This document shows, one piece after another, positions 5,977 to 10,154 of a stretch of DNA of 14,413 bases. The notes under the pieces are model-generated. The model was given only the letters and a program-made list of their open reading frames with translations. It searched no databases and was not told the origin of the DNA. Positions within the stretch are counted from its first letter, which is position 1; each line of letters begins with the position of its first letter. A program made the translations under genes and the position numbers. The DNA comes from a virus (lineage: Duplodnaviria; Heunggongvirae; Uroviricota; Caudoviricetes), in IMG/VR virus record IMGVR_UViG_2663762810_000008. One strand, 5' to 3'.

Positions 5977-6189
5977 TCATGAAAGGTAAACATTGGCAGC
6001 TGAAGGGCCACGCAGACCATTTATCCGGCAAAATTCCACGCGTAATCCGGTGGTAATTTCTTCTGCATCGCGGAGATTGAGCGCTGAAACATGAAGCTGG
6101 ACATCGATACGACCATCGGATGGGGTGATAAGACCCTTGCCGCTTTTGCCGTCAAAGGTTTTGACAATTCCTGTCATTTTACGGGACAA
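5977..6189 (-). CDS. cspF: CspA-family cold-shock protein, CspF/CspH subtype
   Basis: Translation (M)[26 protein letters not shown]...[21 protein letters not shown] matches remembered CspF/CspH. The codon at 6189 is TTG, with an AAGGA site 7 nt upstream; the first in-frame ATG is at 6177. Divergent from cspB, as in Qin-type prophages. Confidence 0.8.
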
Positions 6190-6489
6190 AAAAATTCCTT
6201 AATACTGATAACTGGGCGCACTATACACACGTTCCTGAAGAAAGCTATAGTTTTTTGATGGGGTTGAAGATGGCTGGATGTCTAAAATAAACATTGCTTC
6301 ATATGTTCAACTATGCGTTAATGATTGCGTCGGTTTGAAGAACAGACGATATACGAAGTAGTTTACTAAAGCAGTTCTCATTTCAGGTGTTATTCACTTA
6401 TTCCTTCTTTGAGTCTCTCCAATTAAGTACGAAGTCGTTTCTGTTATACAAGCCATTTATGCCGAAAGGCTCAAGTTAAGGAATGTAGA

Positions 6490-6705
6490 ATGTCAAATAA
6501 AATGACTGGTTTAGTAAAATGGTTTAACGCTGATAAAGGTTTTGGCTTTATTTCTCCTGTTGATGGTAGTAAAGATGTGTTTGTGCATTTTTCTGCGATT
6601 CAGAATGATAATTTTCGAACCTTATTTGAAGGTCAAAAGGTTACCTTCTCTGTAGAGAGTGGTGCTAAAGGTCCTGCAGCAGCAAATGTCATAATTACTG
6701 ATTAA
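6490..6705 (+). CDS. cspB: Cold-shock protein CspB
   Basis: 71-aa translation [53 protein letters not shown]... carries the RNP1/RNP2 motifs of the cold-shock domain; AAGGAA ribosome-binding site and a long AT-rich 5' leader. Confidence 0.9.
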
Positions 6706-6986
6706 AATTCATAGTTTGTCTGTATACGATAACGAAGAAGGCTGATGCCTGAGTGGAGATACAGACAGAGTGGTGAATATTGGATCTCTTTAATAAATAG
6801 TAAGGAGGTCCAATACATGAAACAATGGCCAGCATATTTGGCAATAACTTAATCAGGAAAAGTATGCTAACCATTGTGGTGAAGTGCAGGTTTGCTGCAT
6901 GAATAGTTTTACAGCAGAAGCTAACTGCTGGCATAGCAAAACAAAGTGCGTAAGTGGATGACTCCCACAAAAAGTACCACAATATT

Positions 6987-7009
6987 AAACCCGCTCAGGC
7001 GGGTTTTTT
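6987..7009 (+). terminator. Intrinsic terminator downstream of cspB
   Basis: Direct: AAACCCGC-TCAG-GCGGGTTT followed by six T (7004-7009). Confidence 0.6.
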
Positions 7010-7068
7010 ATTATCTGCTTTAAATATGTTATTAAAATATAAAAAATACTTGTTACGAATAAAATCAA

Positions 7069-7239
7069 TCAAGCTACAGCTTTAAGATTTGTCTGGAATA
7101 CTTTGTTGCAATGAGGGCAGATCAAAAGGGCACCTTTTTGTACTCTTGAAAAACTGTGTTCTGACTCTTGGGTGCAGTTTGGGCAGGAACATTTAACGAG
7201 ATAATTACGGCGTGATTTTGAGTCTTTACGTTCTGACAT
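7069..7239 (-). CDS. Small zinc-ribbon protein (two CxxC pairs), 56 aa
   Basis: Translation MSERKDSKSRRNYLVKCSCPNCTQESEHSFSRVQKGALLICPHCNKVFQTNLKAVA has CPNC and CPHC pairs. AGGAAA site 6 nt upstream of the ATG at 7239; the longer track ORF (start 7290) has no ribosome-binding site. Confidence 0.45.
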   Translation of the reverse strand: MSERKDSKSRRNYLVKCSCPNCTQESEHSFSRVQKGALLICPHCNKVFQTNLKAVA

Positions 7240-7457
7240 AGGCTTTTCCTGTATAAATGGCCGTATACAGTACACTAAATATGAAAACATATCTCGTATT
7301 ATTATTTAATATATGATTTTCTTTTAAAATAATTACCCACATTTTTAATGTGTCTGTTTTTTAGCGCCGTTGAGAACAACGTTTGCTATAAAAACTAACC
7401 CATAGACTCCGATCTTTTCAAACATATTGCACCATCTGTGTACATCGGGGTGAGGAT

Positions 7458-7673: not shown

Positions 7674-7677
7674 TCCA

Positions 7678-8229
7678 ATGACACAAGACTATGAACTGGT
7701 TGTGAAAGGAGTCCGCAATTTTGAGAATAAAGTGGCGGTAACTGTAGCCTTACGGGACAAAAAACGCTTTGACGGTGAAATTTTTGACCTGGACATCTCG
7801 CTGGACCGTGTTGAAGGTGCCGCGCTGGAGTTTTATGAGGCAGCAGCCAGAATGAGAATCAGACAGGTATTCCTGGATGTTGCTGCCGGGTTATGTGTAG
7901 GGGATGAGCAGTCGCCGGAAAAGCGCCCCATAATTTTAGAGGCGCAGAATGTGTGGATAACCTACAAAGGAAAGCTACCGGGAAGAATTACTGGTTCTCT
8001 GAAGACGCCACCGACGGCATTGCGGTCAGAAAAAGATGATATTGAATCGCCCATTGAAAAACTGGAGGGCAGCGTCGCTGATCTGAATAAAAAATTGTCG
8101 GTGCTGATCCCTTCTGAAGATGAAAAAAAACGCCGCGATGAGCAGTTTGCGGCGTTTTACGATTATTGCATTGAAGTTACTCGCAGGAATTTTGTGAAGA
8201 TTTTTGAGGAGGGTAAATCTCTTCAGTAA
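7678..8229 (+). CDS. Hypothetical protein between holin and endolysin (possibly YdfR/DUF1327-like, C-terminally extended)
   Basis: ATG at 7678, 4 nt after the holin stop (MTQDYELVVKGVRNFENKV...). The track start at 7657 overlaps the holin and is less likely. Resemblance to the small ydfR-type ORF of Qin-like lysis cassettes is from memory and not verified. Confidence 0.55.
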   Translation: MTQDYELVVKGVRNFENKVAVTVALRDKKRFDGEIFDLDISLDRVEGAALEFYEAAARMRIRQVFLDVAAGLCVGDEQSPEKRPIILEAQNVWITYKGKLPGRITGSLKTPPTALRSEKDDIESPIEKLEGSVADLNKKLSVLIPSEDEKKRRDEQFAAFYDYCIEVTRRNFVKIFEEGKSLQ

Positions 8230-8437
8230 GCTTAATGGCGGACGCTGCAATTAATTCAGGAAGGTCCGCAAGGTCATCTGTCAGTGGATATGATGAAAAA
8301 TCGGCGGCAGTTCTGTTAAGAAGCGCTTTAACTAATTCCTTTTCCTTCTCCGGCAACAAGTTGATTAGAGCTACGACTGCTTGCCTGAGTGCGATTAAAT
8401 CAGCAAAAGTTTGTTTTGGTAGATTTGTGTAATCCAT
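8177..8437 (-). CDS. Hypothetical protein, 86 aa, convergent with and overlapping the 3' end of the preceding ORF
   Basis: ORF MDYTNLPKQTFADLIALRQAVVALINLLPEKEKELVKALL... with a protein-like helical composition; fills an otherwise ~320-bp gap ahead of the endolysin. Start ATG at 8437 (track lists the GTG at 8443). No family recognised. Confidence 0.3.
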   Translation of the reverse strand: MDYTNLPKQTFADLIALRQAVVALINLLPEKEKELVKALLNRTAADFSSYPLTDDLADLPELIAASAIKLTEEIYPPQKSSQNSCE

Positions 8438-8550
8438 AGTCACCTCTGTGTTTATCAGATTGACATCCTCCTCCCGCCAGTGCCCATCACTGGTGAGGTA
8501 AGATTTAACATATCCGGGGATTTGAAGCCGATAAATCCTGATAAATATCC

Positions 8551-9084
8551 ATGAACGTAAAAATCAGATACAGCCTGTCGGCTGCTGTTCTGGCACTGAT
8601 TGCCGCCAGTGCTCCTGCCCCTGACATTCTCGATCAGTTTCTGGATGAAAAAGAGGGGAATCACACCACTGCATACCGCGATGGCTCCGGCATATGGACC
8701 ATCTGTCGGGGAGCAACGATGGTGGACGGTAAACCTGTTATTCCGGGAATGAAACTGTCGAAGGAAAAATGCGCCCAGGTTAACGCCATTGAGCGGGATA
8801 AGGCGCTGGCATGGGTGGAGCGCAATATAAAAGTTCCACTGACCGAGCCACAGAAAGCCGGTATCGCGTCATTCTGTCCCTATAACATTGGCCCTGGTAA
8901 GTGTTTTCCGTCGACGTTTTATAAGCGGCTTAATGCCGGTGATCGTAAAGGCGCATGCGAGGCGATTCGCTGGTGGATAAAGGACGGTGGACGTGATTGC
9001 CGCATTCGTTCAAATAATTGTTACGGTCAGGTTATTCGTCGTGACCAGGAGAGTGCATTAACCTGCTGGGGGATAGAACATTGA
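8551..9084 (+). CDS. rrrQ: SAR endolysin, T4-lysozyme-like (GH24)
   Basis: 177-aa ORF with N-terminal weakly hydrophobic Ala-rich segment ([15 protein letters not shown]) typical of signal-arrest-release domains, and the catalytic triad spacing E-x8-D-x5-T ([16 protein letters not shown]). Confidence 0.85.
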
Positions 9085-9578
9085 ATCAGATATTCACGGT
9101 GATTTTGCTCGTGTTGGTAGGATTTGTCGTAGGTAATGTCTGGAGCGACAGAGGATGGCAAAAAAAATGGGCGGAGCGTGATGCTGCCGAATTATCTCAA
9201 GAGGTAAATGTCCAATTTGCTGCTCGAATAATTGAACAGGGGCGAACTATATCCCGTGATGAGGCTGTTAAAGATGCACAACAGAAAGCCGCTGAAATTT
9301 CTGCCAGGGCTGCTGATCTGTCTGATAGTGTTAACCAGCTGCGTGCCGAAGCAACAAAATATGCCATACGCCTTGACGCAGCGCAGCATACCGCAAATCT
9401 TGCCGCTGCCGTCAGAGGCAAAACAACCAAAGCCGCCGAAGGAATGCTCACCAACATGCTCGGAGATATTGCAGCAGAAGCTCAGCTTTATGCTGAAATT
9501 GCTGACAAACGCTACATCGCAGGAGTGACTTGTCAACGGATTTATGAATCTTTAAGAGATAAAAAATATCAGATGTAG
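9081..9578 (+). CDS. rzpQ: Rz-type inner-membrane spanin
   Basis: N-terminal transmembrane segment ([15 protein letters not shown]) followed by a charged, Ala/Gln-rich coiled-coil-like periplasmic domain. Start overlaps the endolysin stop; the codon at 9081 is TTG, so the exact start is uncertain (alternative GTG at 9099). Confidence 0.8.
9274..9528 (+). CDS. rzoQ: Rz1-type outer-membrane lipoprotein spanin, embedded in the +1 frame of the Rz gene
   Basis: [23 protein letters not shown]: positively charged n-region, hydrophobic core and LTSC lipobox, then a Pro-rich mature region ([14 protein letters not shown]). GAGG site 9 nt upstream of the ATG at 9274; an alternative ATG lies at 9259. 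Confidence 0.6.
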
Positions 9579-9941
9579 ATTAATATTAAATCGGATTATT
9601 TTTAGCGCTGAATGTGAAATTTAAATAAAAAGGACTCTTCCATGAGTCAAAATCCTTGAAATCTTAAGGGTAAGATAAAAGGTCATTAGACAGAATGACA
9701 CGTTTTATTAATAAATAAAGCTATTGTTTCATTCGTGTGTTTTTCTTTACAAAAGTAATCCTTGCTATGGTTGGTTAATCATGCGTTAATGGTGTTCTGG
9801 TTTGTTACAAAATTATCTGAAGCAGTCATTGTTATAATTTTATTATTTGTACCTCTTGAGATCTCCTTGTTGGTTTTTCTCTCTGATATTTTTTTTCGGA
9901 CCATTCTGCCCAAGGGCTAACTTCTTCAAAAGGTAATAATG

Positions 9942-10154
9942 ATGTCTAACAAAATGACTGGTTTAGTGAAATGGTTTAACCCTGAAAAAGGTTTTGGTTT
10001 CATCACGCCGAAAGATGGTAGCAAAGATGTGTTTGTCCATTTCTCAGTTATTCAGAGCAACGATTTCAAAACGTTAACTGAGAATCAGGAAGTCGAATTT
10101 GGTATTGAGAACGGACCTAAAGGCCCCGCGGCTGTTCATGTAGTGGCACTTTGA
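9942..10154 (+). CDS. cspI: Cold-shock protein CspI
   Basis: Translation [70 protein letters not shown] matches remembered CspI. Tandem ATGs at 9939 and 9942; long AT-rich 5' leader. Confidence 0.9.

Follow-up and report, generated by a model that had tools for sequence, protein, structure and literature searches.

Lambdoid phages carry cargo genes, or morons, within their late regions; examples are stx, located between Q and S, and the lambda bor gene, located downstream of Rz. The mRNA leader of CspA-family cold-shock genes acts as an RNA thermosensor and stabiliser, so that the protein accumulates after a temperature downshift. The Qin prophage of Escherichia coli K-12 MG1655 contains, in this order, cspF (b1558), cspB (b1557), ynfU, essQ, ydfR, rrrQ, rzpQ/rzoQ, cspI (b1552), ynfQ, ynfR, ynfN, and gnsB. 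Here we analyzed a stretch of 14,413 nucleotides (nt) from the IMG/VR virus record IMGVR_UViG_2663762810_000008 (Caudoviricetes), hereafter the window, in which these csp and lysis genes have the same order and orientation as in Qin. Taking locus identity, the csp units, and the cspF start as one joint judgement, we consider it highly probable that this region represents cargo carried in the late region of a Qin-type lambdoid E. coli prophage, in a defective copy with a truncated Q, where cspB and cspI form cargo units, cspF stands apart, and UUG is its most likely start codon.

An earlier note on this DNA had reported three CspA-family paralogs interleaved with the lysis cassette, cspF on the minus strand and cspB and cspI on the plus strand, and this arrangement is borne out by their Pfam CSD matches, by their K-12 identities, and by the bracketing coordinates (Table 1). 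All three open reading frames (ORFs) exceed the PF00313 gathering score of 27 bits, and the encoded proteins are identical to those of K-12 at 70 of 70 (CspF), 69 of 71 (CspB), and 69 of 70 residues (CspI); the cspI ORF has one extra ATG at 9939. CspB and CspI retain the RNP1 (KGFGFI) and RNP2 (VFVHF) motifs and, given this aromatic surface, would be expected to work as chaperones of single-stranded RNA or DNA. CspF has SGKGLI in place of KGFGFI, VQLHV in place of VFVHF, and a threonine in place of W11, and most of its aromatic residues for nucleic-acid binding are gone; the loss of the aromatic RNP1/RNP2 residues in CspF agrees with the literature (PMC6719143). The gene order Q, cspF/cspB, holin, YdfR, lysozyme, Rz/Rz1, cspI, ynfN, gnsB, terminase was found complete except for Q, of which only the last 84 codons remain. 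Nearly every complete E. coli genome matches some part of the 4.7-kb stretch, and 1386 of 5426 genomes cover 80% or more of it, with many copies identical or near-identical.

Table 1. Coordinates of genes and of proposed regulatory features in the window.
Feature	Position	Strand	Remarks
Truncated yfdQ (CPS-53-type)	4728-5345	-	205 codons vs 274 in a related genome
Q antiterminator 3' remnant (ydfT/quuQ)	5307-5561	+	residues 167-250 of 250; fused to truncated yfdQ
Candidate late promoter pR' (TTGCAT-17-TAAAAT)	5593-5621	+	just past the Q stop codon; read from sequence
G+C-rich hairpin with T-runs on both strands	5667-5690	both	terminator scan; free energy (dG) -14.4 kcal/mol, z -5.0
ynfS-like small ORF	5833-5922	-	downstream of cspF; RefSeq on the identical stretch of genome L001; K-12 ynfS in the same place
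cspF	5977-6189	-	70 codons, TTG start; Pfam CSD PF00313, E 5.6e-22, 77.8 bits
cspF initiation region	6190-6225	-	TATAGT 6225-6220, AAGGA 6200-6196, 6-nt spacer, TTG
Candidate cspB promoter (TTGCTT-17-GTTAAT)	6294-6322	+	ends 7 nt before the Rfam leader start
cspB 5' leader, predicted cspA-type thermoregulator	6329-6489	+	161 nt; includes GCCGAAAGGC upstream box
cspB	6490-6705	+	71 codons; Pfam CSD PF00313, E 8.4e-32, 109.3 bits
Hairpin right after the cspB stop	6707-6778		dG -25.8 kcal/mol, z -5.95; without U-tract
Mini-ORF in the cspB 3' region	6801-6852		11 codons, MKQWPAYLAIT
cspB-unit intrinsic terminator	6987-7012	+	hairpin 6987-7006 and T-run; dG -15.5 kcal/mol, z -4.57; terminator scan
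ynfU zinc-ribbon small-protein gene	7069-7239	-	Pfam YnfU PF23499, E 2.5e-31; RefSeq
Lysis cassette	7458-9578	+	Pfam Phage_holin_2_1, DUF1327, Phage_lysozyme, DUF2514; RefSeq annotations
essQ holin	7458-7673	+	in lysis cassette
ydfR-like	7678-8229	+	in lysis cassette
Unrelated ORF	8177-8437	-	86-88 codons; without Pfam match
rrrQ lysozyme	8551-9084	+	in lysis cassette
rzpQ spanin gene	9081-9578	+	rzoQ-like frame 9274-9528 embedded
Candidate cspI promoter (TTGCTA-17-GTTAAT)	9762-9790	+	second and only other motif copy; just upstream of the Rfam leader
cspI 5' leader, predicted cspA-type thermoregulator	~9795-9941	+	~147 nt
cspI	9942-10154	+	70 codons; Pfam CSD PF00313, E 8.9e-31, 106 bits
ymcF/ynfQ-like zinc-ribbon small-protein gene	10165-10353	+	62 codons, ATT start; Pfam YmcF-like, E 6.3e-33
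ynfR remnant	10356-10394	+	12 codons, TAG-shortened vs 21 in K-12; RefSeq 'too short'
cspI-ymcF unit intrinsic terminator	10360-10382	+	dG -14.8 kcal/mol, z -2.64, then TTTTTT; inside the ynfR remnant

The cspB and cspI genes appear to form self-contained cold-shock units placed in two classic slots, Q-to-holin and spanin-to-terminase, each with a putative sigma-70-type promoter of its own, a cspA-type leader, and an intrinsic terminator at its end. The leaders were recognized by the Rfam family RF01766, whose model covers both leader and coding region and has a gathering score of 78: the cspB match (6329-6768) scores 156.5 bits and the cspI match (9795-10200) 116.8 bits, each over the full model (1-428), and on this basis both leaders are predicted to be thermosensors. 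Their G+C content is 37% (cspB) and 33% (cspI) vs 44% in the whole window. Putative promoters were sought by a family-specific motif search, which replaced a generic sigma-70 scan; the motif TTGCT-N18-GTTAAT has exactly two copies in the window, compared with 0.01 expected, each located just upstream of an Rfam leader, and the shared motif makes them candidate promoters for cspB and cspI. Most of the 300-nt intergenic region between cspF and cspB consists of the cspB promoter and leader. Both units have their own terminator, though at some distance from the csp stop codons. The terminator of cspB lies 282 nt past the stop codon and is conserved in K-12, and that of cspI lies past the ymcF/ynfQ-like gene, thus the cspI unit is at least bicistronic; the hairpin of the latter terminator was placed on the minus strand by the terminator scan. 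The ymcF/ynfQ-like gene begins 10 nt past the cspI stop codon, and its RefSeq ATT start is identical in K-12 ynfQ and ymcF; ATT is a very rare start codon, which had not been flagged in the earlier note. In K-12, cspI, ynfQ, and ynfN are co-induced 6.5-, 5.9-, and 5.8-fold, respectively, after azidothymidine (AZT) treatment (PMC11228462), and YnfR, a small protein encoded beside cspI, is cold-induced (PMC6001520).

Different cargo is found in phages that share the same Q and the same holin/YdfR/lysozyme/Rz genes: between Q and the holin gene, mEp460 carries a DNA methyltransferase gene and PhiR47_1 carries four tRNA genes, and neither phage has cspI after Rz. As these slots hold different genes in related phages, the csp units may fairly be described as moron cargo. 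CspB and CspI were reported to be cold-induced (PMC4956666), and long-term stationary phase was reported to raise the expression of cspB, cspF, and cspI from the cryptic prophage of K-12 (PMC7406224). That the csp genes are instead ordinary Q-dependent members of the late operon, with no expression of their own, is barely credible. Two of them, cspB and cspI, do share the late-gene direction and are situated between Q and terminase, but both have their own promoter motif and a full cspA-type leader, the Q gene of the window is truncated, and cspF, ynfS, and ynfU are encoded on the opposite strand; for K-12 this proposal is effectively refuted, the genes being induced by cold, stationary phase, and AZT from a cryptic prophage. 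The sequence thus supports cspB and cspI as what look like independently expressed cargo.

The defective state of the prophage bears on the same point. The match to Qin-type prophages begins at 5306 of the window, and the Q remnant is identical at 84 of 84 residues to the C-terminus of ydfT in genome L001 (BLASTP); the deletion is not present in a related genome with an intact yfdQ...ydfT interval. Because the repressor, replication, and most early genes are missing, the prophage is defective, and with only the last 84 codons of Q left, the window has lost any possibility of cognate late transcription. In principle, read-through over the csp and lysis genes could still be driven by a Q protein of matching specificity supplied by another prophage. 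The candidate pR' may be the late promoter, judging from its position and the analogy with the lambdoid pR', and the hairpin downstream of it is, by position, a candidate tR' on the plus strand and a candidate terminator of a cspF-ynfS transcript on the minus strand. In an intact phage, the Q-modified late transcription complex would presumably read through the csp terminators. The deletion junction itself falls within 4728-5561, where the truncated yfdQ adjoins the last 84 codons of Q. A second breakpoint was observed at ~14171, where the Qin-type identity and the terminase large-subunit gene both stop; the last 240 nt of the window match other prophage contexts, which are tail genes in some genomes.

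The third paralog appears to have a transcription unit of a different kind. The window cspF belongs with the CspF/CspH clade, having VQxH in place of RNP2, TTG as codon 1, and an AAGGA-type Shine-Dalgarno (SD) sequence 6-7 nt upstream. No RF01766 leader was found for cspF at E <= 1 on either strand of 5600-7500. An alignment of 17 representative loci of this clade from Escherichia, Citrobacter, Salmonella, Klebsiella, Enterobacter, and other Enterobacteriaceae revealed three invariant elements: GTATAGT, located 30 nt before the start codon, AGG within the SD, and the TTG. We infer that TATAGT is the -10 box of the cspF promoter, and its distance from the start implies a leader of ~20-25 nt. 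Thus, cspF would be expressed from a divergent short-leader promoter, antisense to the late direction, and would probably be co-transcribed with ynfS as far as the hairpin 5690-5667, the likely transcript end. We also searched the predicted 5' mRNA ends of cspF and cspH for structures that mask UUG or AUG and found no fold beyond that of shuffled sequences (z ~ -0.8). A review that we retrieved lists only CspA, CspB, CspE, CspG, and CspI as cold-induced, and CspF is not among them.

These results qualify the picture given in the earlier note, in which the three paralogs were said to look like independent morons, open to refutation by a lack of cold induction, each with a long AT-rich leader and, for cspB and cspI, a terminator of its own. 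Independence is supported for cspB and cspI by the promoter motif, leader, terminator, cargo swaps, and truncated Q; however, cspI is not a one-gene unit and runs into the ymcF/ynfQ-like gene and the ynfR remnant. Both terminators exist, but neither is adjacent to its csp gene. Long leaders are present in cspB and cspI, whereas the lack of an RF01766 match together with the nearby TATAGT box does not fit a long AT-rich leader for cspF. Likewise, cold induction agrees with the literature on CspB and CspI, but CspF is not named as cold-induced in the literature retrieved, and by the refuting condition of the note the claim fails for cspF.

The start codon of cspF deserves separate consideration. 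The region reads TATTAAGGAATTTTT-TTG-TCC-CGT-AAA-ATG, with the TTG at 6189-6187, AAGGA 6 nt before it, and an ATG as codon 5. The earlier note had proposed that the frame opens at this TTG with a well-placed AAGGA site, and this stands, given the 6-nt spacing and the same TTG in RefSeq K-12; the distance between AAGGA and the first ATG, for which 19 nt had been given, was recounted as 18 nt. In RefSeq, K-12 cspF starts at exactly this codon, and the start of its paralogue cspH (b0989) is the homologous TTG, preceded by the same SD. The TTG is kept in all 25 intact CspF/H-clade loci from a collection of species-representative genomes (Escherichia, Shigella, Citrobacter, Salmonella, Klebsiella, Enterobacter, and other Enterobacteriaceae), and the spacer between SD and TTG varies. 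Codons 2-3 show synonymous changes (TCC/TCT and CGT/CGA), as expected under translation. Among four frameshifted copies, the TTG is changed to CTG or deleted in three (L027, L028, and L031) and kept in one (L033). Residues 1-67 of CspF align without gaps to residues 1-67 of CspA, and thus the TTG corresponds to the true ATG start of CspA, CspB, CspG, and CspI, each of which likewise has an internal Met5. For cspF, UUG has been named as the initiation codon (PMC11648934). We therefore regard UUG as the likely main start of cspF: translation most likely begins at the UUG aligned with Met1 of CspA and yields the annotated 70-residue protein. Initiation at this UUG is probably inefficient, and some initiation may occur at AUG5. 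Two other explanations were rejected: a strain-specific mutation of ATG to TTG, as K-12 and every intact orthologue or paralogue that we examined have TTG, and a start further upstream, given an in-frame TAA at -12. An unannotated frameshifted csp copy of the cspF/cspH type was also observed in phage Tritos (L035, ~2490-2720).

Several observations weigh against our overall reading of the locus. In the generic sigma-70 scan, matches were no commoner than in shuffled sequences, and the proposed csp promoters were not flagged. A hairpin that lacks a U-tract directly follows the cspB stop codon, and the 280-nt 3' region has no assigned role. As for the cspF start, published mapping data are sparse and mixed and do not confirm the UUG: tetracycline-inhibited ribosome profiling (TetRP) of K-12 gave signals of 0/94/75 at ATG+12 vs 0/47/0 at the annotated TTG in three samples, curated as 'multiple' (PMC4909307, Table S2 row 146); these quantised values suggest one or two reads per site. 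Both INRI-seq in vitro and Ribo-RET in vivo gave zero signal at the annotated start of cspF and cspH, and no alternative start is listed for either gene (PMC9825163). The invariance of the TTG is weaker evidence than it seems because the whole 5' end of the coding sequence is highly conserved at the nucleotide level. The supplements of the TRAINSPOTTER N-terminomics study contain no entries for cspF or cspH.

The profiling data would suit a CspF made only from the internal AUG at codon 5, as a 66-residue protein, with the TTG conserved for some other reason, e.g., as an mRNA element: the TetRP signal is stronger at ATG+12 than at TTG, INRI-seq and Ribo-RET lack a TTG signal for both cspF and cspH, and ATG5 is also invariant across the clade. 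We consider this unlikely, since no purine-rich SD lies within range of ATG5, with AAGGA 18 nt away, and INRI-seq provides no alternative start for cspF. Moreover, the TTG is invariant beside a variable spacer and is lost in most of the frameshifted copies, the synonymous variation in codons 2-3 fits translation, and the homologous codon is the genuine start in CspA, CspB, CspG, and CspI in spite of their Met5. Dual initiation, which would produce 70- and 66-residue isoforms at a UUG/AUG ratio set by initiation-factor levels or growth condition, is possible but doubtful. Its basis is the 'multiple' label of the TetRP curators, which denotes signal at both sites, and the invariance of both codons across the clade; however, neither peak appears in the other datasets that we retrieved, the TetRP values would fit just one or two reads at each site, and the same MSxKM arrangement occurs in other paralogs that were not flagged as dual. 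A more specific version of this idea, to which we assign a low probability, is that the conserved UUG and the in-frame AUG four codons on constitute a regulatory device, more than just a weak start, that partitions initiation between 70 residues with Lys4 and 66 residues through start-codon discrimination, e.g., according to the level of initiation factor 3, growth phase, or DNA damage. If true, such partitioning would account for the failure to see the protein under standard conditions despite conservation in several genera.

The conservation of cspF also has to be set against the possibility that the gene is a decaying, non-functional relic, with the odd start and the lost aromatic residues as signs of erosion. 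The gene is expressed at very low levels and its protein has not been detected, strains deleted for cspF show no competition phenotype during long-term stationary phase, two mRNAs that respond when CspA or CspD is overproduced are unaffected by excess CspF, and phage Tritos, E. ruysiae, and some E. coli carry frameshifted copies. Such decay is nevertheless quite improbable in view of the persistence, in six or more genera, of intact 70-codon ORFs (67-87% protein identity), in which the -10 box, SD, and start codon are invariant, and in view of the expression of cspF: its transcription increases in long-term stationary phase, and the gene has been reported as one of the AZT-induced cold-shock genes. 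The start codon of CspF and CspH, conserved proteins never detected at native levels, is a small point, and its identity would fix the annotation in thousands of E. coli genomes and would show whether residues 1-4, including Lys4, which has been implicated in target choice of CspA, belong to the protein.

Other features of the region concern the cspB 3' end and the genes between the two csp units. The strong hairpin that comes immediately behind the cspB stop can be aligned to the 3' hairpin in the Rfam cspA model. Between this hairpin and the terminator lies a mini-ORF with a perfect TAAGGAGGT SD 7 nt upstream; in K-12, the SD and ATG of the mini-ORF are kept, and the peptide (MKQWLAYLAKS) differs at 3 of 10 residues after Met. 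The ynfU gene is oriented antisense to the late direction. Within the lysis cassette, the ydfR-like gene has 183 codons compared with 103 in K-12, and the RefSeq label is that of a truncated pseudogene. The unrelated minus-strand ORF falls between the ydfR-like gene and rrrQ, where K-12 has nothing.

The K-12 reference annotation and the csp literature already cover every element of the finding, which is real but ordinary and has little weight outside annotation: it is a textbook case of a temperate phage with host-type stress genes and a predicted RNA thermosensor as cargo. Compared with K-12 Qin, Q is truncated in the window and fused to a yfdQ of the CPS-53 type, the ydfR-like gene has more codons, an extra minus-strand ORF is inserted between this gene and rrrQ, ynfR is cut to 12 codons, and terminase genes follow instead of the K-12 remnant. 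Escherichia phage 2H10 (NC_049950, Glaedevirus) is 99.6% identical over 5562-10400 and has three 'cold shock protein' coding sequences at the same places, with cspF annotated from the same 213-nt frame; however, the 2H10 record is that of a complete phage genome (46 kb) whose Q is intact, whereas the window is a deleted prophage. The same module is present in the 2H10 relatives PhiR63_1, HannyBb, and PhiR42_1.

A further counterpart is the K-12 chromosomal locus cspH-cspG-ymcF-ymcE-gnsA, whose cspH is a paralogue of cspF that likewise starts with TTG and shares its SD and -10 box. The cspH-gnsA stretch (L003 1968-3228) is colinear with 5981-6604 of the window (cspF and the 5' part of cspB, 76% identity) and, from the cspG start, with 9942-10989 (cspI-ymcF...gnsB, 74%), but lacks a lysis cassette where these two parts meet. 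The leader of cspG shares 78% identity with that of cspB and only 46% with that of cspI, and the 3' part of cspG is closer to cspI. Thus, cspG looks chimeric, with a leader and 5' end resembling those of cspB and with a 3' end and downstream genes resembling those of cspI, which suggests that cspH-gnsA may have originated in such a prophage by recombination between cspB and cspI that deleted the lysis cassette. Compared with the E. coli cspA thermoregulator (RF01766) and the CspA/B/G/I group, cspB and cspI match the full 428-position model, whereas cspF has neither the leader nor the aromatic motifs. Like the lambdoid morons stx and bor, the cspB and cspI units appear to be promoter-gene-terminator units in the Q-S and Rz-terminase gaps; unlike them, their cargo consists of host-type stress genes with a predicted RNA thermosensor rather than virulence or exclusion genes.

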